Virus record (IMG/VR): IMGVR_UViG_3300032330_001692
Coordinates: 1-64,000 of that record
Length of the DNA stretch: 64,000 bases
Direction: 5' to 3' (one strand)
From: a virus
Taxonomy: Duplodnaviria > Caudoviricetes
Positions 17,992 through 62,890 of this stretch are shown one piece after another (within the stretch, counting starts at the first letter, position 1; every line of letters starts with the position of its first letter). Position numbers and translations under genes: made by a program. The notes under the pieces are model-generated. The model was not told the DNA's origin and searched no databases. It worked only from the letters and a program-made list of their open reading frames with translations.

Positions 17992-18020
17992 ATTATAACA
18001 CTAAGGGTTTGTTGAGTCAA
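17992..18020 (-). promoter_or_regulatory. Late promoter upstream of tape measure
   Basis: TTGACT-N17-TATAAT on the minus strand. Confidence 0.7.
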
Positions 18021-27152: not shown

Positions 27153-28454
27153 TTACAGGGTATAGGTGTATAAAGCATAACGCAATGCATCTGCCATGTG
27201 CGAATGCTCATCGTGTTTGGGTTTTTCTTGTGTGAGCGTTTCACGGTCGTCCCATTTGTACTGGTCCAACATTTGCAGGGTTACAGCACAATGCGGAGCT
27301 ACTCTGAGCCGGTTTTGAGCCACTAAGGTCTGCACATAAGCAATGCCTGGTAGTCGGTCCTTTTTGGCCCGTATAGTAGCAATGTCGTAAGTGTAAGCTA
27401 AATCAGCTGCAAACTGTGCGGCGGCTGAATCAATGAAGATGGTTTCCAGCCCGTATTTGGTGACAAACTCTGACAGCTTTTCCGCATGCTTTGCAGTCAC
27501 AGCCTGAGCGTCCTGATATTCATCTACTACCCAGAACACATCTTCCAGGGGAGAATACGCCAGCACACAAAATGCAGTGGGATCACGGTAACCTGGGTCT
27601 AGTCCAGCAAAGTACTCGCAACCGTCGTGATGTGTGAACTCTTGCACTGAGGTCTCTTGAAAGTCAAAAATCTGACCTTCAAAGGTGTTGAATGAGGCCA
27701 TGTACTCTTGCTCGAATTCTGCAGGCGACATGGCTCGGCGTGCCTCCAGTACATCTGACTCTTGCATTCGTGTATTCTCCGTATAATCTGCATGCAAAGA
27801 AATCCACTCGGGATAGTCTGCTGAAAAACCACGCTGAAAAAACTTTGAAAACCAGTTGTTTTTGCCTCGCGGCGTTGAAATGAAAATGGCTTTTGATCCG
27901 GGCCGGTCTAGAGTAGGACGTAAACTCACGTTGAATGCATTTTCTGCGTCTGAGCCTAAAGCCGCTTCGTCGAATATAATCAAGTCGTATGAGCGGCCCA
28001 CACATGAATCTACTGTTGAAATAGAACCCATGCGGATGGTTGAACCATTCTCCAGCTCAATCACCTTGTCTTTGAGATTGTCCTTGGCTACTTCTAGGTC
28101 AAAGTGCTTGATGAAACGGCGTTGCAGCTCAAACGAGATTGAACTCAAGTTGTAGTTCGGCGACATGATCAAGACGTTCGATCCTGGGATCAAGGTAACC
28201 AGCTGTCCGATTACATTGGAGATGAACGTTTTGCCCAGTCGTCGTGATAAGGCAGCACAGATGAAACGGTACTGAGGTGAGTTGGCTGCGTTGATCAAGG
28301 CAATTTGCGGACGATTGAGCTCATCATAGACGTTTTGACCGTTGAAGTTTAAAAGCTTCAAGTATCCTGCAATAGGCAGCTTTATGAATCGTGAATCCGC
28401 TGGATAGTCCGTGATCAGCTCTGCGGAAATGTCTGAGCGTGAAACTTTAAGCAT
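27153..28454 (-). CDS. terL: Terminase large subunit
   Basis: Walker A SRRLGKT, Walker B IIFDEAA, ISTP, RNase H-like GLDPG and SHMADALRY. Confidence 0.95.
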   Translation of the reverse strand: MLKVSRSDISAELITDYPADSRFIKLPIAGYLKLLNFNGQNVYDELNRPQIALINAANSPQYRFICAALSRRLGKTFISNVIGQLVTLIPGSNVLIMSPNYNLSSISFELQRRFIKHFDLEVAKDNLKDKVIELENGSTIRMGSISTVDSCVGRSYDLIIFDEAALGSDAENAFNVSLRPTLDRPGSKAIFISTPRGKNNWFSKFFQRGFSADYPEWISLHADYTENTRMQESDVLEARRAMSPAEFEQEYMASFNTFEGQIFDFQETSVQEFTHHDGCEYFAGLDPGYRDPTAFCVLAYSPLEDVFWVVDEYQDAQAVTAKHAEKLSEFVTKYGLETIFIDSAAAQFAADLAYTYDIATIRAKKDRLPGIAYVQTLVAQNRLRVAPHCAVTLQMLDQYKWDDRETLTQEKPKHDEHSHMADALRYALYTYTL

Positions 28455-28920
28455 TGGACTTGACCAACCGTTCAATGAGTTGGTGGTAATTCGAACCACC
28501 AGTTTCATTAATCTGAATATTGGTTTGAGTGCGCAAGTTTGAACCCTTCAACTTTTCCAGCTGAATCTGCCGGTCTAGAGTTTCCATGGTCATTTTGTGT
28601 GAGAGTGCTAAAATCTCCAGAATATCCTTTGACGATCCCACGTCGGCTTCGTCTAGTTCCTGAAACTTTTTCTGAATGATGGCGTCCATGGCATCACGCA
28701 TGCGGAATCGATTGTTGAAGCCTGTGTCGAAAAACACTTGATCGATGTAAGCTTTGACTTCTCTGCGTGCTAAAATGTTTGTGACTAGTTCAGTGGACAC
28801 TGAGAGTTCATCAGCTACTTCTTGTGCCGACTGTTTTATGAGATAACAGTTGGCGATTTCGAGTGCTTCAGGTGAGATTTCCAAAACCTCAGCAGGATGT
28901 GTGGTGGGCAAGTTTTTCAT
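28447..28920 (-). CDS. terS: Terminase small subunit (T5-like)
   Basis: ISPE.LE.AN.YL, REVK.YID.VF.D.G.NNR, SSKDI motifs; directly upstream of terL. Confidence 0.8.
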   Translation of the reverse strand: MKNLPTTHPAEVLEISPEALEIANCYLIKQSAQEVADELSVSTELVTNILARREVKAYIDQVFFDTGFNNRFRMRDAMDAIIQKKFQELDEADVGSSKDILEILALSHKMTMETLDRQIQLEKLKGSNLRTQTNIQINETGGSNYHQLIERLVKSNA

Positions 28921-29626: not shown

Positions 29627-30337
29627 ATGTACGAAGTTTCAGCCCAAATGATTGACGACACCTGCCACCAGGTGCGGGTTACCGCGTCGAATTCCATGTT
29701 CGTGGAAGTGGGCGACGTGTGGAACATGCAGGAACTGGATCAGTTCTGTGAGCGTGAGATGATCGACTTGGTGATTTTCTAAAAAGGAACTGTGATGATT
29801 AAGCCTCTGGAATTGAACTACCTGCCCCTGGAAGCGCGCATGGCTGCTGCCGATGCTGCCCTGGTGTACGCTAACCGCTTGAGCGATCCGTGTGCCACTG
29901 GTTGGGAAATCGGCGAAGCACTGGACACCCTGCAAGCGGCGTGTTATCATCTCGTTACCCTGCAACTTAACAAGGATTGACGTGTCGAAATTGAGTGATT
30001 TGAGCACCCAGATTCAGGATATGCTGGAATCTGGCATGGAACCCGAAACTGTAGCGCGCGTGTTGGAAGTGCCTGTGTCATGGGTGTTTGTGGAAATTGA
30101 GCAGGATCAAGAAGATTCGGCAAACTGGTATAACCCGAATCCTCGGTTTGATTGGTAACAGAAACTAAAGGAGATAACATGCAGTTCTTTATGCTGGAAT
30201 GGTGGGACATGAATCAAGGTAAGTATCATCAAGAGTATTACCAAACCTTTGAGGCTTTGTCTGCCAGGTTTATCATGTTGCGTGATAACGTGCCCGACAG
30301 CCGCCCGGAAGTTACCACCTGTCTGATGGGCGACTAA
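29627..30337 (+). CDS. Cluster of four small pre-early hypothetical genes
   Basis: Short ORFs, most with AAGGA RBS, downstream of promoter TTGACG..TATACT at 29568-29597. Confidence 0.55.
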
Positions 30338-30495
30338 ATAATAAGGGGAAACCCTTATTATTTGCGCCGATATTATACCACCTAATATCGGGCCGCGTCA
30401 AGAACTTTCTTCTAGGTGTTTCCACCTATGAAATAGTTGGTTGTGGCCTGGTGGCTGGTGTATACTGTGTTCACTCACTCAAACAAGGAAATCAA

Positions 30496-30708
30496 ATGGA
30501 CTACGCTCTCTACTCCACTGACGAACTGGCAGGCATCTTTTCGGACTACTACAAAGACGTGCATGGCATCCGCCCTCGCTGGATTGACCACACTGATCGT
30601 GGGGTTTTGATGGCAGGGTTGACGGCGCTGGACGATTACATGGCACACATGCGCAGTACGCCCGAGGGACGTGAAGAACTGCGCGAGCAGGGCTGGGTGC
30701 TGGGCTGA
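30496..30708 (+). CDS. Pre-early hypothetical protein
   Basis: AAGGAAATCAA-ATG; SDYYKDVHG.RPR motif common in phage early proteins. Confidence 0.65.
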   Translation: MDYALYSTDELAGIFSDYYKDVHGIRPRWIDHTDRGVLMAGLTALDDYMAHMRSTPEGREELREQGWVLG

Positions 30709-30838
30709 CAAAAGACCCCACCAACTGTGGGTCTTTTTGGCGCCAAAATTATATCACTAATTTTGGGGCCGGGTCAAGAACTTTTTTCTAGGTGTTTTCA
30801 CCTATGTTAACCTGGCAGGCACTAAGCGAGAATACCGC

Positions 30839-31219
30839 ATGGATCAAAAAACACTTCTCGCACTGGCTCACAAAACCGTGGCTAAAACCTGGGGCAGCTT
30901 GGTCAGGGTTTACCCTGGGTTGACAGAACCCTGCCCCATAGTGATGCTTAACTCACGCTTGAAAACTACCGCAGGCCGCAGTTTTTACACTCAGAGAAAA
31001 ATTGATCTGTCAACACAATTGTTCACAGAACATCCGTTTCACTTTGTGCAGGACACCATCCCGCATGAAGTTTGCCATCAAGCGGCATGGGATTTATTTT
31101 CTGAACCCGGCCACGGCGAGCCGTGGCGGCGTGTTATGATCTCACTTGGCATCCAGCCTAATCGGTGCCATCAAATGACAAATACCCTATGGGAAGCTCA
31201 AAAAGCTAACCGCCGATAA
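30839..31219 (+). CDS. SprT-like zinc metalloprotease
   Basis: RL.TTAG, HEVCH, HG..W..VM motifs. Confidence 0.85.
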   Translation: MDQKTLLALAHKTVAKTWGSLVRVYPGLTEPCPIVMLNSRLKTTAGRSFYTQRKIDLSTQLFTEHPFHFVQDTIPHEVCHQAAWDLFSEPGHGEPWRRVMISLGIQPNRCHQMTNTLWEAQKANRR

Positions 31220-31632
31220 TATGAAAAATTTTCCCGGATTCTTGGCAGTGTGCGGCGCGTGGTTTTGTGCCCTGGGTTTTGTGCTGCCTGGCATCATGTG
31301 CTTTTTGGCCAGCTCGTTCTGGAGTATATTCTGTGATGAGGATTGCAGCGTGTATTCTCTGGCGTTTCTGTGTGCTAACATGGTGGCATTTTTCAGGCTG
31401 ACGTAATATGATCTGGAGCATGATTCTGGTATCTCTGCTGGCCAGCACGCCGCTGGTGCTTGTGTTCATTATGACTGAAAGTAGCTAATATGCTTAACTT
31501 GCTTAAAATTCTGTGGGCTATCTGGTGTATTATGTGGCTGCCCATTATGTGGTTGCTGGTGGGTGTAACCTACTTTGTGATATTGATTACCACAGGCAAA
31601 GCCGATGCCGACAGCTATATCGAGAACCTGTG

Positions 31633-31866
31633 ATGAAAAACTCCCGCGTGCGCTTGCGTTATGAAATTCTGGAAACTCCGGGCCTTAAACCCTGCACTGT
31701 ATCTGCGGAAGAATTCCGCAGAAAGTTTCAAGGATCTACGGCAAAACTAAATCCAAAACAATATACCGGCACTGAAATGCTGGGCGTGGCCACCATGCAC
31801 AAATCAAATGCAGTTCCGGTGTTTAACACCGACGCGGCCCGAGATATTTCAAACATGCGCAGATAA
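31633..31866 (+). CDS. Phage hypothetical protein (MHKSNAVPV family)
   Basis: YTG..MLG.ATMHKSNAVPV...A.DI..MRR motif. Confidence 0.7.
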   Translation: MKNSRVRLRYEILETPGLKPCTVSAEEFRRKFQGSTAKLNPKQYTGTEMLGVATMHKSNAVPVFNTDAARDISNMRR

Positions 31867-32177
31867 TAATAAGGGGAAACCCTTATTGGCGCCAAAATTA
31901 TATCACTAATTTTGGGGCCGCGTCAAGCGGGTGTGTGAAAATACCACACTGGTGCTTTCCCCTATACACCTGGTCTGCCAGGTGTGGTAGGCAATCAGTT
32001 TGCGCGGTTTTGGGGCGCCAAAATTATACCCGGTTTCTAAAACACTTGTCAATAGGTGTTTTCCCCTACTAGTGGGCCTGGCCGACCTGTGCTAGCAAAA
32101 GACCCTGCCTGGTGTATGGTGTTGCTCGCCTGGCCGACCTGTGCTATTATCGGTGCTTCACACAAACAAGGTTCAGC

Positions 32178-32651
32178 ATGAAAACAGTTTCTCGGGTTTC
32201 AGTTTATGACATGGATGGCACTATCGTTTGCAGTTTGCATCGTTATCGTACCATTACTGGTCCAGATAATATTGAACGAATTGATTTGCCATACTGGCGC
32301 GAAAATGAGTATCGTGCAGGCGACGATTCTCTTTTGCCACTGGCCATGCAATATAAACAAGATTTGCAGGATGAAAACTGCTATGTGATTATTGCCACTG
32401 CGCGAGTATTGAATTCTCCCGACCGTAAATTTATCCGGGAGATTTTGGGTCAACCCGATGCCATCGTCTCGCGTGCTGCAAATGATTCACGCTCGGGTGG
32501 TTTGCTCAAAGTATTGGGTTTGCGCAAGTATTATCAAGCATTCCAATCTGCGGATTGGTGCTTTTATGAAGATAATGCAACCTATCTCAAAACGGTTTGC
32601 GACTATTTCAATATCCGGGGCGTGTATGTGCCCAGCAAACAAGGCCACTAA
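32178..32651 (+). CDS. HAD-family phosphatase (possible nucleotidase)
   Basis: DMDGT motif I, TAR motif II, FYEDN motif IV. Confidence 0.8.
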   Translation: MKTVSRVSVYDMDGTIVCSLHRYRTITGPDNIERIDLPYWRENEYRAGDDSLLPLAMQYKQDLQDENCYVIIATARVLNSPDRKFIREILGQPDAIVSRAANDSRSGGLLKVLGLRKYYQAFQSADWCFYEDNATYLKTVCDYFNIRGVYVPSKQGH

Positions 32652-32762
32652 AATAGATTAAAAAGTTCTTGACAGCAGTATCTGATTCTGATATACTCTT
32701 TTTGTTGGGTTAGTAAACCCAACCCGCGATTATCCGGCGGCTCCGGTATAAAGGAAACTAAA

Positions 32763-33461
32763 ATGGCCAAAAAGCAATACTTTGCAATTCTCGACACCGA
32801 AACCACGATGGCAAATACCGTGGCTGATTTGGGTATTATTATCGTTGACCGTCAAGGCAAGATTTATAATCAAATGGCAGTTTTGATTAACGGTCAATAC
32901 GGCACGCATGAATTGTTCCATGACAAACATGCCAACGACGTTTGGGGTTATGGTGGACTGGAAAAGCGCAAACTGGCCTATACCAAAATGCTGGATTCAG
33001 GTTCGCGTATGCTGGCATCAGTTAATGCCATCAACCGTTGGATTCAGCAGGCCGTCGGCAAATACAATCCCGAATTGACTGCCTATAATCTGAGTTTCGA
33101 CCTGGACAAATGTGTGAATACTGAGATTGATTTGAGTGGATTTAATAGCTCATTCTGTTTGTGGCAAGCTGCCGTGGGTAACGTCTGCAATACCAAACAA
33201 TATAAACAGTTTGTGCTTGACAATCACGGTTTCAACGCTCCGACGGGCCACGGCAATATGTCCATGAAAACCACCGCAGAAATGGTTGCCGGGTTTATCT
33301 CGGGTGAGTTTAAGGCAGAACCGCATACTGCACTGGAAGATGCCCGAGATTTTGAATTGCCCATTCTGGTGGAGATTCTGAAAAAGAAAAAGTGGCGTGA
33401 AAAGATTACCCCTTATGTGTGGCGTGATTTTCAGGTGAAGAATCATTACTCGGTGAAATAA
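32763..33461 (+). CDS. DEDDh 3'-5' exonuclease
   Basis: LDTET (ExoI), AYN..FD (ExoII), HTALED (ExoIII); own promoter TTGACA-N17-TATACT. Confidence 0.85.
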   Translation: MAKKQYFAILDTETTMANTVADLGIIIVDRQGKIYNQMAVLINGQYGTHELFHDKHANDVWGYGGLEKRKLAYTKMLDSGSRMLASVNAINRWIQQAVGKYNPELTAYNLSFDLDKCVNTEIDLSGFNSSFCLWQAAVGNVCNTKQYKQFVLDNHGFNAPTGHGNMSMKTTAEMVAGFISGEFKAEPHTALEDARDFELPILVEILKKKKWREKITPYVWRDFQVKNHYSVK

Positions 33462-33462
33462 T

Positions 33463-33795
33463 ATGCACGACCTTATCCGTCAAACGATAGGGTTTCTCCA
33501 AATCGAGAAACCCTATAAAATCGTGCTCAAACCCGCACTAAAAGGTAATGCAGCAGAGTATTATGAAATGCGCAGAAAGGGTAAACTGGTTTCGCATTTA
33601 ATCCGGGTTTCAATCGACAATCTGCATACTGATTCCCGGTGCTTGAATACTTTGATCGTGCATGAGTTTATCCACGCCTGGCAAGCCGAGAATAACATTG
33701 TGGAGATTCACGGCCGTGAATTCAGGAAAATGGCTAAATCTCTGGGCAACATTTTGAATCTGGACAATATCTATATTAAGGGCACAGATGTTTAA
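33463..33795 (+). CDS. Second SprT-like metalloprotease
   Basis: HEFIH...HG..F motif. Confidence 0.75.
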   Translation: MHDLIRQTIGFLQIEKPYKIVLKPALKGNAAEYYEMRRKGKLVSHLIRVSIDNLHTDSRCLNTLIVHEFIHAWQAENNIVEIHGREFRKMAKSLGNILNLDNIYIKGTDV

Positions 33796-34418
33796 TATTC
33801 TAGAACTTAAACAAATCAAGGAAATTGTAGATGAAATCCTTGAGATTCATGACGCGCAAAATAATATTCATATACCAGAAAAGGGTTTTGAATATCTCAA
33901 TACTCAACGTGCCATGCTCGAAGATCGATTGCAAAAGATATTCGACGATTATTAACCAAACCGAATAAGGGTTTACCCTTATTCGGGCGCCAAAATTATA
34001 TCACTAATTTTGGGGCCGCGTCCAGCGGCCTGGTGATTGTTTTTTGCTATGGCCGCCTGGCAGACCATAGGCTGTGCCTATGGGCCGGGCGCCAAAATTA
34101 TACTATGCCTGCGAAAAAGCTGTCAATAGGTGAAAGCACCTAGTAGACCGCCTGGCGGAACTGTGCTAGCGAAAGACCCCACAAAAAGTAGGTGTTGCCT
34201 GGCGCGCTGGAATCGGTTATTATTCTTTTGTCGGTTGTTCGGACAGTTCTTTAAAAACCAGCGCGATTCAGGCCCTGCCGGGACGGCACTGCCAAAGACC
34301 CCTAAAAAAATAGGGGGTTGACACAGAATCGAAAGTGACTGATAATAGATTCATCGGTTCAGGAAACGCCGAGCAATCGCAAAAGTTTCCAAATTGTTCC
34401 CTAAAAGGATACTGAAAA

Positions 34419-34775
34419 ATGGCTCAAGCTAAAACCGTGGTTGTGAACTACACTGCCGAACAAACTGCCCAGGTGGTTGCCGACTATCAAGCCGGTGTTA
34501 CCGTGGAAACCATTGCGGAAAACATGGGCAAAACCGCCCGTTCGATTATCGCGAAACTGTCTCGCGAAGGTGTTTACAAGGCTAAGGTTTACAAAACCAA
34601 AACCGGCGAAACCGTGGAAAAGAAGGATCAAACCGCCGATGCCATCGGTGCAGTTCTGAAAATGTCGGAGTCGGAGATTGAATCTCTGACCAAGGCGAAC
34701 AAAACCGCCCTGCGCAAGATTTGGCAGGCGCTGGCTAATTCGCGGCCGATTACTCCGGAGGATGATTCCGAGTAA
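34419..34775 (+). CDS. T5 A2-like DNA-binding protein
   Basis: YT.EQT..V...Y....ETIA...GKT.RSI.AKLS..GVY...SL.KA; strong promoter and RBS; pre-early location. Confidence 0.7.
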   Translation: MAQAKTVVVNYTAEQTAQVVADYQAGVTVETIAENMGKTARSIIAKLSREGVYKAKVYKTKTGETVEKKDQTADAIGAVLKMSESEIESLTKANKTALRKIWQALANSRPITPEDDSE

Positions 34776-34863
34776 TTCACAAACCCCGAAAGGGGTTTTA
34801 ATAGTATCTTCACGGTACTATTAAAACCGTTTTCTCTCAACTGGCCTAGAAAGGGCATCCGTT

Positions 34864-35451
34864 ATGCGCAAAGATTCTGAAACTTTCATGAACTCGGGTT
34901 CGGGTTATCTGCGTGCCACCACCGCGGTGGAAGTCGTTGATATTTGGGGTCAGGTATCCTATCGAAAAGTGGTTATCGGCAAACTGCATGATGTTAGTTT
35001 GCACGATGCCCAGGATATTGTGGAAAAGGCTCGGCAAACTGCTGCCGACCGTGGGCAGAATATTCAGGCTGAATTCAAAATCTCTCTGTAAACCGAAAGG
35101 ATTAAAATGTCGAATACTAAACTCTCTGTGGCTCAGAAACAAGCCTTGAAAACTCTGCGTCAACTTTATCCCGACGTTGAAATTTTCCATTTTCCCGATA
35201 ATCGGGTTTGCGTGGGCATTCGGCGCACCGGCGAGAAAATGGGGGAATTTTCCGTGGCAATTTGCGCAGATACCGAAACCAAGTATCGCAAAAAGGTCGG
35301 CGAACTGCTGGTGCGTGAGCGCATGCAATATGGCGTGTGTTTGCCGGTGGAATTGGGCACTATTTACTCCGATGATGATGAAACCGAGTATATGGAAATG
35401 GTGGCTGATAGTATCGCCCAGGCAGTAACCGGATTATCGCCCAGGCAGTAA
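34864..35451 (+). CDS. Two pre-early hypothetical genes (34864-35091, 35107-35451)
   Basis: RBS-preceded ORFs. Confidence 0.6.
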
Positions 35452-35812
35452 CCGGATAATATCCAAAACCGAATAAGGGTAAACCCTTATTCGGGCGCCA
35501 TTTTATCATATAAAATGGGGCTGGGTCAAGGGCATGTGTGAAAATACAACGTAGGTGTTTTCACCTAGTCTGACGCGCAAAATTTCGTGTAGAATAGGGT
35601 AGGCGCCAAAAATGCACCACACTGGTGCACGCCTGGTGCACGCCTGGCAAAAGACCACACCGGCTCTAGGGTGTTGACGGCTGACGTGGACCCGGTGTAC
35701 ACTACGTCATCGGATCAAAAAACAAGGTAATAAATATGTGGATGCTTATCGGTTACATGGTGTTTATTGTGGCGGGGTTTGTGATTATGTTCACTGTAAC
35801 TAGGGAATGGTA

Positions 35813-36406
35813 ATGTTTCTGAAAACGTATGAACGGGTAGTAAATACCCTGCTGGCAGGTAATACCGGCAACACTCAAATAGTTTGCCGGTTTCGTGGTG
35901 GCAAACTGCTGCGCGGTACTGCCAGCAAACATAGAACCCACAGCGGGTGTATTTTTCGCAAATTCTTGAGGATGAAACATGCCAGGGTTTGATCGTGATT
36001 ACTTGGTGGCGGTTGGCGCTTACGGGCGTGATGCCACTGAGCAGGATTGGCAGGCCGGAAAAGATTTTCAGGTGAAAGGCGGCCCGTACTTTTCAATCCG
36101 TGATTGCGAAACCATCAAGCAGGATGGGGTTTCGCAAATCATTTTCTATAACCGCCAGGGTTATCTGGCTTTTGTAAAGGATCTATAATGCGGATTACTC
36201 GCGACCAGTTGGTGGACTACACCGATACTATACTCCATGATGCCAGCAGGCTGGGCTGGGATACTATTCGAGAATTGCAGGATCAGTATACGGTGAATCT
36301 GTGTGATGGTAATGACGAAACCTGGTTCGATTCAGACGAACTGCCCCAGGATCAGAACCTGACCATACTGTCAGAAGCCGAGTTTCTGGAAACCTACGTA
36401 TTCTAA
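35813..36406 (+). CDS. Three coupled pre-early hypothetical genes
   Basis: Overlapping start/stop; 35979-36188 has AYGRD...DW..GKDF motif. Confidence 0.6.
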
Positions 36407-36649
36407 AGGAAAGATTATGGAAACCGTTTTGATTTGGCTTGCAGGCGGAGTTATTACCTGGCTGGCCTTGGTGTTTTTGTTTCATGCTATTGTAATTGCG
36501 GGTGCATTTTATTTTATTTACAAAATTTGTAAATAACCAATACCAATAAGGGTAAACCCTTATTGGCGCCATTTTACCACGTAAAATGGGAGCGTGTCAA
36601 GCACTTTCGGAAAAACCCTGCTGGCTGTAGGGGTTCTGCGCCGAAACCG

Positions 36650-37065
36650 GAATCATTCGCATTTGCATTCGTGTTCCGGTGGCTGAAAGCAAATGCGAAT
36701 GATTCGCATTCAGCGCAGTAAACTGCGTAAAGTGTGTAAGGCCGGTAAAGCGCATAAAGTTGGTAAACCTCATAAACTGGGTAAACTGAGTAAACCACTC
36801 AAACCACTACCCCCCACCCCTATTGGCGCCAGTGCGAAATCAACAAGTGCAAAATCAACCAGTTTGCCGGCGCCAGTGCAAAAACAACACCAAATTTTCA
36901 GAGTCTGCCGGCGCCAAAATTATAAAGTGCAAAACCAATGCTTGTCAAGTGCAAATTTCAGAGCGTGACCCCAGCCGCGCCAGTGGGAAAACAACGGAAA
37001 TTTCAAGGGTGGTGGGCGCCAAAATTATAAAGTGGAAAACCAATGTGTGTCAAGTGCAAATTTTC
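36650..37065. repeat. Injection-stop-signal-like repeat block
   Basis: 17-bp inverted repeat, about ten 9-nt units (GTAAACTGN-like, 36718-36807), AGTG(C/G)AAA repeats and GGCGCC repeats. Confidence 0.6.
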
Positions 37066-37177
37066 ACACGGAAACAGTTACCGGAACCCATTACCGCAAA
37101 AAGACCACATAAATTTTTAATTTGCTCAAGTTTGCCTTTTGGGGTATAATGTTTTTATTCTAAACTCCGATACCGTT

Positions 37178-37480
37178 ATGGCTCAGCAACCTTATACTCC
37201 AGAACAAACCACCCAAGTGCTCCAACTATACGCCGCAGGCGTAGACCAGGAGACTATTGCGCTTACTCTAGAGCGCAGCACTCGCAGCATTATTAGCAAA
37301 CTGGTGCAGCTGGGCGTTTATCAAACTCCGGAACAGCGTCAGGCCAGACCCAAAAAAGCTGAGCTGATTCAGCAAATTGCAAGGCACCTGGACCTGGATG
37401 CAGCTCAGTTGAACTCTCTTGAAAAAGCCACACACGGCGCACTCACGCTCTTGCACAGCTCCATAACTCAACCCACCTAA
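37178..37480 (+). CDS. A2/D3-like DNA-binding paralogue
   Basis: YTPEQT..V..LY.AG...ETIA..L.RS.RSIISKL...GVY...SLEKA. Confidence 0.7.
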   Translation: MAQQPYTPEQTTQVLQLYAAGVDQETIALTLERSTRSIISKLVQLGVYQTPEQRQARPKKAELIQQIARHLDLDAAQLNSLEKATHGALTLLHSSITQPT

Positions 37481-37574: not shown

Positions 37575-37874
37575 TCACGGCTTTAAAGCCTTTTCCAAGA
37601 GCAAAAGCACGTTTTTGTTGGCTTTTTCAAGCGATTCCAGCAATTCCAAATTGCAATCCAGCAGTTTGGCAATCTTTTCGATCAAAACTTCCTTCTTTTC
37701 AGGCGGTTCACCGCGCTTGTTCAAGTAAGTTTTGCGCTGGTAAACACCCAAACTCGACAATTTTGCGATCACTGAGCGTTCAGGCACACCCAGAGTCCGG
37801 GCGAGTTCAGGCACAGGGACTCCGGCCAGGTGTTGGTTTAAAAGCTGTTGTGTGATTTCAGGAGTGTATTTCAT
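37575..37874 (-). CDS. A2/D3-like DNA-binding paralogue
   Basis: YTPEIT...RSVIAKLS.LGVY...ESLEKANK. Confidence 0.7.
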   Translation of the reverse strand: MKYTPEITQQLLNQHLAGVPVPELARTLGVPERSVIAKLSSLGVYQRKTYLNKRGEPPEKKEVLIEKIAKLLDCNLELLESLEKANKNVLLLLEKALKP

Positions 37875-62396: not shown

Positions 62397-62466
62397 AAAA
62401 CTAGGGTCAGCACGGTGGGACGTGCAGGTAGACAATACTGCATACAAGGTTCGAATCCAAACTCTA

Positions 62467-62770
62467 GGCACGATGGTTGTAATTCCCCTGAAACGAATGT
62501 GAGCAAGACGCGGGTTCGACTCCCGCCAGGTCCACCAGAAGTACTTTTGTCCATGGAGTTGGGAACGGATAGATAAACCGTGAAAGTATTTCTGATGGGC
62601 CTGCCCAGGTTTCGATTGCGCAAGCTAGTGGATGGAGCAACTCGGTAGGCGATGACCGTAAATCAAGCAAAACACAATAAATGCAAACGATAGCATTTTT
62701 GCTGTAGCGGCCTAAAAAACTTGCACAGCTGAGGTTTTGGCCGGTTCCTTATCAAAGAATACCGGCCCTT
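62467..62770 (+). ncRNA. ssrA: Circularly permuted (two-piece) tmRNA
   Basis: 3' piece ...GACGCGGGTTCGACTCCCGCCAGGTCCACCA (ends 62537) precedes an intervening hairpin and the 5' piece GGGCCTG (62597). Tag ANDSIFAVAA* at 62683-62715. Outer ends approximate. Confidence 0.9.
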
Positions 62771-62890
62771 TAGAATAACGCTAATGTGAAGGGACTCCGT
62801 GCACGGTGAGCCTGGATCTGAGTCAGCGAGTTGATAGTTGGAGTGGACTGACCCACAAAGAGTAACTATCGAATTGGCGTTATTCTAAAG
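62768..62890 (+). ncRNA. Unidentified helix-closed RNA between tmRNA and tRNA-Thr
   Basis: 18-bp CTTTAGAATAACGCTAAT/ATTGGCGTTATTCTAAAG. Confidence 0.55.

Follow-up and report, generated by a model that had tools for sequence, protein, structure and literature searches.

Conserved antisense promoter cassettes with their own predicted terminators punctuate the probable pre-early block of uncultured T5-like phages

T4-like phages carry short composite cassettes, the promoter-early stem-loops (PeSLs), in which a stem-loop is combined with an early promoter of sigma-70 type. PeSLs recur among the small accessory genes of a plastic early region, are conserved from one related phage to another and lie at the borders of insertions, deletions and replacements (PMC2839356, PMC4122927). 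We analysed the first 64 kb (the window) of the single 93,828-bp viral record IMGVR_UViG_3300032330_001692, which is classed as linear and 89% complete, and found ten promoter-hairpin cassettes on the minus strand at 30336-37053, for which PeSLs are the nearest described kind of element. The cassettes resemble PeSLs in all of the above traits. However, PeSL promoters face the gene downstream of them, with a Shine-Dalgarno sequence and a start codon behind the promoter, an arrangement that the cassettes lack: here the promoter is aimed at the stop codon of the upstream gene, and its own terminator would end transcription at once. Their 18-bp spacer, GGCGC discriminator and spacer/-10 palindrome are likewise features of the cassettes and not of PeSLs. 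The initial annotation of this DNA knew of no described element like this one; that holds with a qualification, since the position at module borders, and the indels that begin and end there, are shared with PeSLs, and the orientation is not. Judged from sequence, the cassettes are very probably selected, self-contained units that are recognised by the host primary sigma factor and oppose the genes of their block in an uncultured freshwater clade of T5-like phages. The best explanation overall, to which we give a probability of roughly 0.45, is that they are self-terminating sigma-70 units whose selected output would be polymerase occupancy at the borders of gene modules, and which may also act as recombination joints.

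Several other systems share single properties with the cassettes. Lambda oop and P22 sar have a host-type promoter facing a gene end or leader and make a short terminated RNA of 69-77 nt that overlaps its target mRNA, and both are single-copy, whereas the predicted cassette RNA is little more than a terminator and there are 5-13 cassette copies per genome. The 'stringent' promoters of rRNA and tRNA genes (rrnB P1, with TATAAT-GCGCC..., and tyrT) combine a GC-rich discriminator with a 16-bp spacer, a weak -35 and long productive transcripts. The cassettes are like them in having a consensus-like -10 followed by GCGC(C), a non-optimal spacer and, in some copies, an upstream A-tract, from which we can only infer a kinetic similarity by analogy. 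The temporal promoter classes of T5 and gpT5.026 likewise belong to the T5-like family, with host sigma-70 holoenzyme used throughout and a class-marking discriminator, which is ATATT in T5 early promoters (PMC7472727) and has GGCGC as its counterpart in the cassettes. The T5 classes drive genes, unlike the cassettes, and neither a GC-rich discriminator nor an 18-bp spacer is described for T5.

We ran the pattern TTGACN-N15-20-TAnnnT-N0-8-GGCGC/GCGCC over the window and the whole record. Nine sites were found, all on the minus strand, with -35 5' ends at 30401, 30777, 31926, 32052, 34126, 35529, 36600, 36948 and 37053, and there was no site elsewhere in the window or in the 93,828-bp record; in forty Markov-1 genomes the mean was 0.15 and the maximum 2. 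Together with a tenth cassette at 34024, whose -35 is the degenerate TGGACG, these sites bear out the ten minus-strand promoters with GGCGC that had been annotated at 30336-37053, and the motif is indeed not evenly scattered, since none lies outside this 6.7-kb block of the record. The spacer was 18 bp in all ten cassettes, and all ten scored 10-12/12 against the sigma-70 consensus, four of them perfectly. A scan of the whole record for at least 11/12 consensus matches gave 19 sites. All eight with an 18-bp spacer were cassettes, and the remaining 11 strong promoters all had a 17-bp spacer, including the late-gene promoters at 18020, 27108 and 28978, so that the distinction drawn earlier between 17-bp late promoters and 18-bp cassettes held across the record. 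GGCGCC occurs 12 times in the record, always within 30739-37015; outside the block the count is 0, compared with 10 expected from base composition and 2 from the Markov model. Six copies (30401, 30777, 31926, 34024, 35529 and 36600) enter a hairpin at +1 to +5, with -12 to -19 kcal/mol as RNA, and each of these hairpins lies 0-18 nt past the stop codon of the opposing plus-strand gene, as the initial annotation had described; five of the six have the form AATAAGGG-N4-CCCTTATT. A seventh copy (34126), which that description had not counted, also has a hairpin nearby, without a U tract. The opposing genes themselves are real, as indicated by SprT-like Pfam matches and a Dmp homologue among them.

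Two types of copy can be told apart, type A with an inverted repeat over the spacer and -10 (H2) and type B without this palindrome, often also without an immediate hairpin after GGCGC (H1). Cassette 1 (type A, 30336-30401, minus strand, as are all the others) has its -35 TTGACG at 30396-30401, its -10 TATAAT at 30372-30377 and GGCGCA at 30363-30368, with H2 at 30367-30391 and H1 at 30336-30363, the latter overlapping the stop of the plus-strand gene that ends at 30337. Cassette 2 (type A, 30712-30777) has TTGACC at 30772-30777, its -10 at 30748-30753, GGCGCC at 30739-30744, H2 at 30743-30766 and H1 at about 30712-30737, and its hairpin is the only one that would also be good as a plus-strand terminator. 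Cassette 3 (type A, 31868-31926) carries TTGACG, a -10 at 31897-31902, GGCGCC at 31888-31893, H2 at 31892-31915 and H1 at 31868-31887, 1 nt past the stop codon at 31866. Cassette 4 (32014-32052), a type B copy without palindrome or immediate hairpin, is a perfect TTGACA-18-TATAAT with GGCGCC at 32014-32019, and its predicted RNA would run for about 150 nt up to H1 of cassette 3. Cassette 5 (type A, 33961-34024), the copy with TGGACG, has its -10 at 33995-34000, GGCGCC at 33986-33991, H2 at 33990-34013 and H1 at 33961-33986, followed by TTTGGTT on the minus strand. Cassette 6 (type B, 34065-34126) is again a perfect TTGACA-18-TATAAT, with GGCGCC at 34088-34093 and the hairpin without U tract at 34065-34083. 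Cassette 7 (35469-35529), a variant of type A, joins TTGACC to a -10 TAAAAT at 35500-35505 that abuts GGCGCC at 35494-35499; the arms of its H2 (35498-35518) are compensated, and H1 at 35469-35494 is followed by TTTT on the minus strand. Cassette 8 (36543-36600), also a type A variant, is TTGACA-18-TAAAAT with GGCGCC at 36565-36570, H2 at 36569-36589 and H1 at 36543-36566. Cassettes 9 (36910-36948) and 10 (37015-37053) are type B copies with perfect consensus and are partners in a 105-bp direct repeat; cassette 9 lies inside a non-coding repeat block and has a DnaA-box-like TTTTGCACT in its spacer. A third small hairpin, H3 (TAGGTG-N4-CACCTA, 30413-30428), stands just upstream of the antisense -35 of cassette 1, with a second copy at 30789-30804 and variants at other cassettes.

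Relatives were sampled in two ways. In the motif-seeded sample, the 15-mer GGCGCCAAAATTATA matched at least 119 stretches of IMG/VR contigs, many of them with 2-6 copies, and GTCAA stood at the spacing needed for the -35 in 165 of 190 occurrences. The motif-independent sample comprised 80 loci (773 kb) found via the neighbouring exonuclease gene (68-93% amino-acid identity), and orientation was scored relative to this gene, in place of a noisy crude test based on open reading frames (ORFs). We found 424 cassettes antisense to the exonuclease gene and 0 sense; cassettes were present in 78 of the 80 loci, with a median of six per locus. The 18-bp spacer was kept in 249 of 289 motif-seeded cassettes and in 312 of 342 non-identical copies of the motif-independent sample. 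In five near-complete relatives, GGCGCC was clustered in one 6-10-kb block beside the terminase genes, and the few outliers outside that block were ordinary coding DNA. By comparison, a megablast of the block against 50,697 cultured phage records gave no match, a distant search of cultured phages with one cassette gave only chance 18-19-mers, and a scan of the terminal repeat of T5 itself for an antisense consensus array found none. The search among T5-like relatives that the initial annotation had proposed was thus positive in uncultured relatives and negative in T5's own repeat. The cassette family is known so far from uncultured contigs alone, and we regard it as a conserved family that is new here.

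Phages whose proteins share 40-77% identity carry nearly identical cassettes, which are multi-copy, intergenic, palindromic and found at indel borders. These properties would also suit a selfish or neutral repeat, namely a small palindromic mobile element like REP (repetitive extragenic palindromic), MITE (miniature inverted-repeat transposable element) or Correia elements, with an outward promoter and no benefit to the phage. We hold this to be very improbable, given the strictly uniform orientation (424 to 0), the confinement to one block and the promoter geometry preserved through variants; we saw neither a transposase nor a target duplication, and no copies in other parts of the genomes, and in 596 Gb of prokaryotic genomes the motif occurred in only five small contigs of metagenome-assembled genomes (MAGs). 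These five MAG contigs come from Nanopelagicaceae, Crocinitomicaceae, Saccharibacteria, Gammaproteobacteria and Alphaproteobacteria bins, and are probably mis-binned phage DNA from lake metagenomes. Mimicry of a host promoter was considered as well and rejected, the five contigs with this 20-base-specified pattern belonging to unrelated phyla.

On the minus strand, the unit reads H3, TTGACA, an 18-bp spacer ending in TGn, TATAAT, 0-4 nt, GGCGC(A/C/G), H1 and a U-rich run. In palindromic copies the TGn at the end of the spacer gives an extended -10, followed by TATAAT or TAAAAT, and two window copies have an A6 tract at about -45. Among the relatives, the distance from the -10 to GGCGC drifted by 0-4 nt while the -35/-10 spacing was held, indicating that promoter geometry is the conserved quantity, as a promoter requires and unlike a fixed composite protein site. 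GGCGC itself lies at about -5 to +3, as a GC-rich discriminator and start region that sets the cassettes apart from all other strong promoters of the record. The following base in the relatives was A, C or G and never T; the GGCGC(C) of the initial annotation therefore stands as GGCGC in all copies, and the conserved core is not the palindrome GGCGCC.

We then consider the hairpin behind the start site. Among the relatives, a hairpin of at least 7 bp started no more than 12 nt from GGCGCC in 172 of 231 copies, compared with 6 of 231 once the sequences were shuffled and 16 of 228 for control positions, and H1 ended 26-37 nt from GGCGCC. Over the 8 nt after H1, T's averaged 3.1 in the promoter direction versus 0.8 in the gene direction, where the 'tail' is GGCGC itself. 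The six window copies carry a GC-containing hairpin with a U-rich tract, the signature of an intrinsic terminator, in the minus direction, with U tracts that are short or interrupted in several copies. Since H1 is U-tailed in the promoter direction only, it would primarily be the promoter's own terminator, and the predicted RNA would be about 30-45 nt long, in agreement with the tiny product that had been annotated. We identified no ORF served by any cassette, and no Rfam family match in or near any cassette at E<=1.

The position of H1 right after stop codons, with two stable hairpins in the sense transcript, raises the alternative that H1 and H2 are 3' stabilisers or processing sites of the plus-strand mRNAs, whose resemblance to a promoter on the opposite strand is incidental; sense transcripts probably read through, H1 having no U tract in that direction. 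This is hardly credible, because coincidence cannot account for an exact TTGACA and TATAAT held 18 bp apart even where hairpins or palindromes are missing, and no G-U tolerance was seen on the sense strand. Another alternative takes the tiny RNA as the product, in the form of many 30-45-nt 5'-triphosphate, U-tailed hairpins that would soak up Hfq, ProQ or 3' exonucleases, or decoy a defence sensor. A strong promoter with a defined terminator would make a discrete RNA, there are many copies per genome, and the stems, of which the relatives have 140 different sequences, are free in sequence and constant in structure, which fits a ligand recognised by structure only. However, an 18-bp spacer and a GC-rich discriminator would be odd for maximal output, the stems avoid G-U pairs, and the immediate hairpin is present in only about half to three quarters of the copies, and the type B RNAs would differ. 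We consider this tiny-RNA reading unlikely.

H2, which the initial annotation had not described, is present in about 70% of copies. In these the upstream half of the spacer exactly mirrors the -10 together with the T's after it and the G's that open GGCGC, and it is compensated in every variant, including changes in the number of T's: TATAAT-TTT-GG is paired with CCAAAATTATA, TAAAAT-T-GG with CCAATTTTA, TAAAAT-GG with CCATTTTA and TACAAT with ATTGTA. When folded as single strands, the six type A window copies form two abutting hairpins with GGCGC at the junction (z-scores -5.1 to -6.5). The G-U wobble test for which strand's RNA folds gave no bias for H1 or H2, whose stems are Watson-Crick on both strands. 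The stem of H3 also varies with compensation among relatives (TAGGGG/CCCCTA, TAGGG/CCCTA), and here there was a G-T bias on the promoter-sense strand (18 versus 5). The palindrome and the Watson-Crick-only stems point to an added property at the DNA level, such as cruciform extrusion. To our knowledge, no natural example has been described of a promoter whose spacer is a co-varying mirror image of its own -10. Horwitz and Loeb in 1988 reportedly engineered a cruciform-regulated promoter with a palindrome covering the -10, a synthetic construct that H2 resembles in that it could hide the -10 on extrusion. At the minus-strand origin of filamentous phages, where single-stranded DNA forms a double hairpin whose stems contain the promoter elements, RNA polymerase makes a primer of about 20 nt; the two abutting hairpins and the very short predicted polymerase product of the cassettes are similar. 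Neither of the two is a repeated antisense array in double-stranded phage DNA. If the self-mirroring promoter proves to be a working switch, synthetic biology would gain a useful and compact part.

These features allow a reading in which the cassette is primarily a DNA structure, with H2 and H1 extruding as a double cruciform around the GGCGC junction and either sensing or absorbing supercoiling, or serving as a target of recombination or resolution. The element would be on as long as the injected DNA stays relaxed and would go off when it becomes supercoiled, and the promoter would mainly open the DNA or read its state. The abutting double hairpins, the co-variation of the H2 arms with every -10 and discriminator variant (matched indels included), the Watson-Crick stems without wobble bias and the indel breakpoints at cassettes would all agree with this. 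Against it, about 30% of the cassettes, those of type B, keep the promoter without a palindrome, palindromes can maintain themselves by template-switch correction without a function, and cruciform extrusion in vivo is hypothetical; we regard such a primary role as improbable. H2 could instead be an operator, a palindrome over spacer and -10 bound by dimers of small D5-like helix-turn-helix (HTH) proteins encoded in the block, which would switch the antisense promoters off or on in time. The site has two-fold symmetry over the -10, and the HTH paralogues (phrog_323) are expanded in the cassette block of every relative examined, with 3-5 of them in each, which makes them candidate regulators of the cassettes or of the sense promoters. 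However, even within one genome the half-sites differ freely in sequence and the arms in length, provided that they pair, which base-pairing fits better than protein recognition. An operator role is thus rather doubtful, although it would be compatible with the polymerase-occupancy explanation.

Type B copies, about 30% of the total, lack H2 and often the immediate H1, and keep the -35, the spacing and the -10. Because they keep the promoter without the hairpins, the hairpins cannot be what produces the promoter likeness. Where a B and an A copy stand in tandem, B is the upstream one, and the predicted B RNA would end at H1 of the A copy. We found no sense promoter of comparable quality hidden in the cassette: palindromic copies do have TATAAT on the sense strand, but no conserved -35 accompanies it, and this candidate was dropped.

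The order of homologous genes changes from one relative to another, and cassettes stand where the modules meet. Two relatives of about 90% identity differ by a replacement, a 503-bp insertion and a tandem duplication, and all the edges of these differences lie at cassettes; the 503-bp insertion carries one cassette and begins 22 nt past GGCGCC. These findings lend direct comparative support to a putative role as recombination joints, through which modules would be gained, lost, duplicated and re-ordered, like PeSLs in T4-like phages. The PeSL idea, that regulatory cassettes are recombination joints, may thereby be extended from T4-like to T5-like phages, with the promoter reversed.

The setting of the array was compared with T5. 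The large terminase gene (27153-28508, minus strand) has about 48% identity to the terminases of Vibrio T5-like phages, and there is no closer cultured phage; late genes run leftward from about 28.9 kb and are followed by small plus-strand genes. In T5, the terminase on the minus strand is followed by more minus-strand genes, a divergent promoter pair and five small plus-strand genes, and the right terminal repeat begins 42 bp past these (AY543070). The gene order around the cassette block matches this: terminase (minus strand), divergent promoter, small plus-strand genes and then the predicted repeat, with the first cassette starting at 30336 and the last small plus-strand gene ending at 30337. 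Within the block, the gene at 32178-32651 (plus strand) encodes a homologue of the HAD-type phosphatase Dmp, whose gene is pre-early in T5 (32% identity over 126 aa, E 6e-13), which marks the block as the likely counterpart of the first-step-transfer DNA of T5. The right edge of the cassette region is a non-coding block of direct and inverted repeats (36600-37100), with a 21-nt inverted repeat at 36650-36705, six 9-nt-phased GTAAAnnnn repeats at 36718-36794, GGCGCCAGTGCAAAA repeats, extra GGCGCC at 36825 and 36869, and five DnaA-box-like TTTTGCACT sites. In position and character this block is analogous to the T5 injection-stop region (10.1101/866236), without sequence similarity to it. A ATTCGCATTCAG motif that the two appeared to have in common was dropped, the similarity being only at chance level. 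Given the T5 synteny, the Dmp homologue, the repeat-rich right edge and the contig of one relative, which begins exactly at the repeat-rich non-coding stretch, we conclude that the cassette block is probably the pre-early region and terminal repeat, with limits near 30.34 and 37.1 kb; by synteny and the Dmp homologue, the cassettes would span exactly this predicted repeat. The assembly, from a record 89% complete, holds a single copy of the block. Nucleotide comparison of the block with the T5 left repeat gave only chance 13-14-mers (E>=0.34), no homologue of T5 A1 was found in the record at E<=0.01, and comparison with T5 A2 was weak and not significant (E 0.03 only).

T5 DNA also carries single-strand interruptions at R^GCGCRGG (AY543070; PMC3517423), which share with the cassettes a purine-preceded GCGC core on the late-gene strand, and some of these nicks adjoin palindromes. 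Unlike them, the cassettes are mostly without RGG, and only the cassettes have a promoter context. If the minus-strand GGCGC were a nicking target of this kind, or if the short RNA primed DNA synthesis, the cassettes could aid duplication or recombination of the terminal repeat. The minus-strand G^GCGC(A/C) does agree with the T5 consensus over its first six positions, and relative to the late genes it lies on the same strand as in T5; two of four distinct major T5 nicks adjoin hairpins or terminators. However, the RGG part is unmatched in most copies, sites with the full T5 consensus occur three per strand elsewhere in the record and none in the block, GGCGCA is common outside the block, nothing promoter-like surrounds the nick sites of T5, and a terminator hairpin would work against a stable primer hybrid. 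Nicking or priming is therefore quite improbable as the function.

The cassettes are real, statistically overwhelming and conserved; their function we infer from sequence, and our account of how the unit works is tentative. The unit joins all the elements that favour binding most strongly, namely a consensus -35, an extended -10, a consensus -10 and in some copies an A-tract, with elements that would hinder opening or productive output, namely a spacer that at 18 bp is longer than the optimum, a GC-rich discriminator and a terminator at about +30. Such a combination would give high occupancy and low productive output. Selection of an immediate terminator would mean that antisense RNA into the gene is harmful, and binding or initiation at the site useful. 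What is selected may thus be that polymerase occupies the 3' border of each module and runs through short futile cycles there, an unusual logic in which polymerase would be bound as tightly, and would transcribe as little, as possible. Three boundary effects could follow: sense read-through would be hindered where H1 has no U tract in the sense direction, any leftward transcription would be stopped, and, on DNA that has just been injected, polymerase would be kept close to the following sense promoter. A proper terminator in the sense direction is missing from most module ends, and most modules start with their own sense promoter, which makes a polymerase-occupied boundary a reasonable role. 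In T5 it is mainly the discriminator that sets the temporal promoter classes apart, and this contact is the target of a phage protein (PMC7472727); a class-specific GGCGC could in the same way make the entire array switchable. The weakest step concerns the co-varying H2, which covers the -10 and might, as a DNA hairpin or cruciform, hide it in a supercoil-dependent off-switch.

Four points weigh against polymerase occupancy as the selected output. H2, the invariant GGCGC and the 18-bp spacer are not required by a boundary model and were fitted to it after the fact. Stems that are Watson-Crick on both strands would be unusual for a purely RNA-level terminator and point to a DNA-level role, which the explanation covers only partly. 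T5 has no such array, so that the function would not be general to two-step injection. An elongating polymerase usually displaces a promoter-bound one, as in transcriptional interference in coliphage 186, and a roadblock role is not assured. The initial annotation had offered polymerase traps or roadblocks together with the shut-off of pre-early genes by collision. What stands of it is a selected, hairpin-limited class of antisense sigma-70-type promoters, confined to the probable pre-early block; docking or trapping of polymerase fits better than shut-off by long antisense transcription, because maximal binding elements are combined with an 18-bp spacer, a GC-rich discriminator and an immediate terminator. 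A bolder reading would make the array a set of supercoil- or cruciform-gated parking sites, occupied by polymerase only while the injected end is relaxed, which would time pre-early expression and its shut-off or gate two-step injection. The promoter folding on itself would then be a protein-free temporal switch, a prospect that we think rather unlikely.

For the first 8% of T5-like phage DNA, the injection stop, pre-early shut-off and protection of the free end are questions still open after 50 years. This clade offers a conserved and countable cis element that, on the assignment above, would span exactly the first-transferred DNA.

The remaining observations concern genes and motifs in and around the block. 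Two proteins with SprT-like metalloprotease domains (Pfam matches) are encoded at 30839-31219 and 33463-33795, and a DEDD-type exonuclease (phrog_20187) at 32763-33461, all on the plus strand; none of the three is among the T5 pre-early genes. The small HTH proteins of phrog_323 ('transcriptional regulator, D5-like') are encoded at 34419-34775 (plus), 37139-37480 (plus) and about 37575-37874 (minus), and neither these HTH proteins nor the exonuclease gave a useful result when their sequences were searched against the Protein Data Bank. GC-rich palindromic hexamers are depleted in the record, with CTCGAG found once (16 expected from composition) and CCCGGG once (10 expected). Such depletion, with the lack of GGCGCC outside the block included, suggests restriction avoidance; for GGCGCC this is suggestive only, the Markov expectation being low and the conserved core being GGCGC(A/C/G). 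Further along the record, an array of 23 tRNAs occupies 47-63 kb, and within it ARAGORN called a permuted gene like that of transfer-messenger RNA (tag ANDSIFAVAA) at 62445-62806 (plus strand).

The sense promoters of the block (32100-32165, 34170-34350 and 35640-35705) have their own upstream stem-loop, AAAGACCCC...loop...GGGGT, abutting the -35, and are thus PeSL-like units in the usual orientation beside the antisense cassettes. Within 30300-37100, GCCTGGC occurs eight times on the plus strand and not on the minus strand, with four occurrences in the rest of the record, and CGCCTGGC occurs five times on the plus strand versus once on the minus strand; both motifs lie mostly in or around the sense promoters. 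A GCTGGTG within 30433-30450 matches seven of the eight bases of the E. coli Chi sequence.

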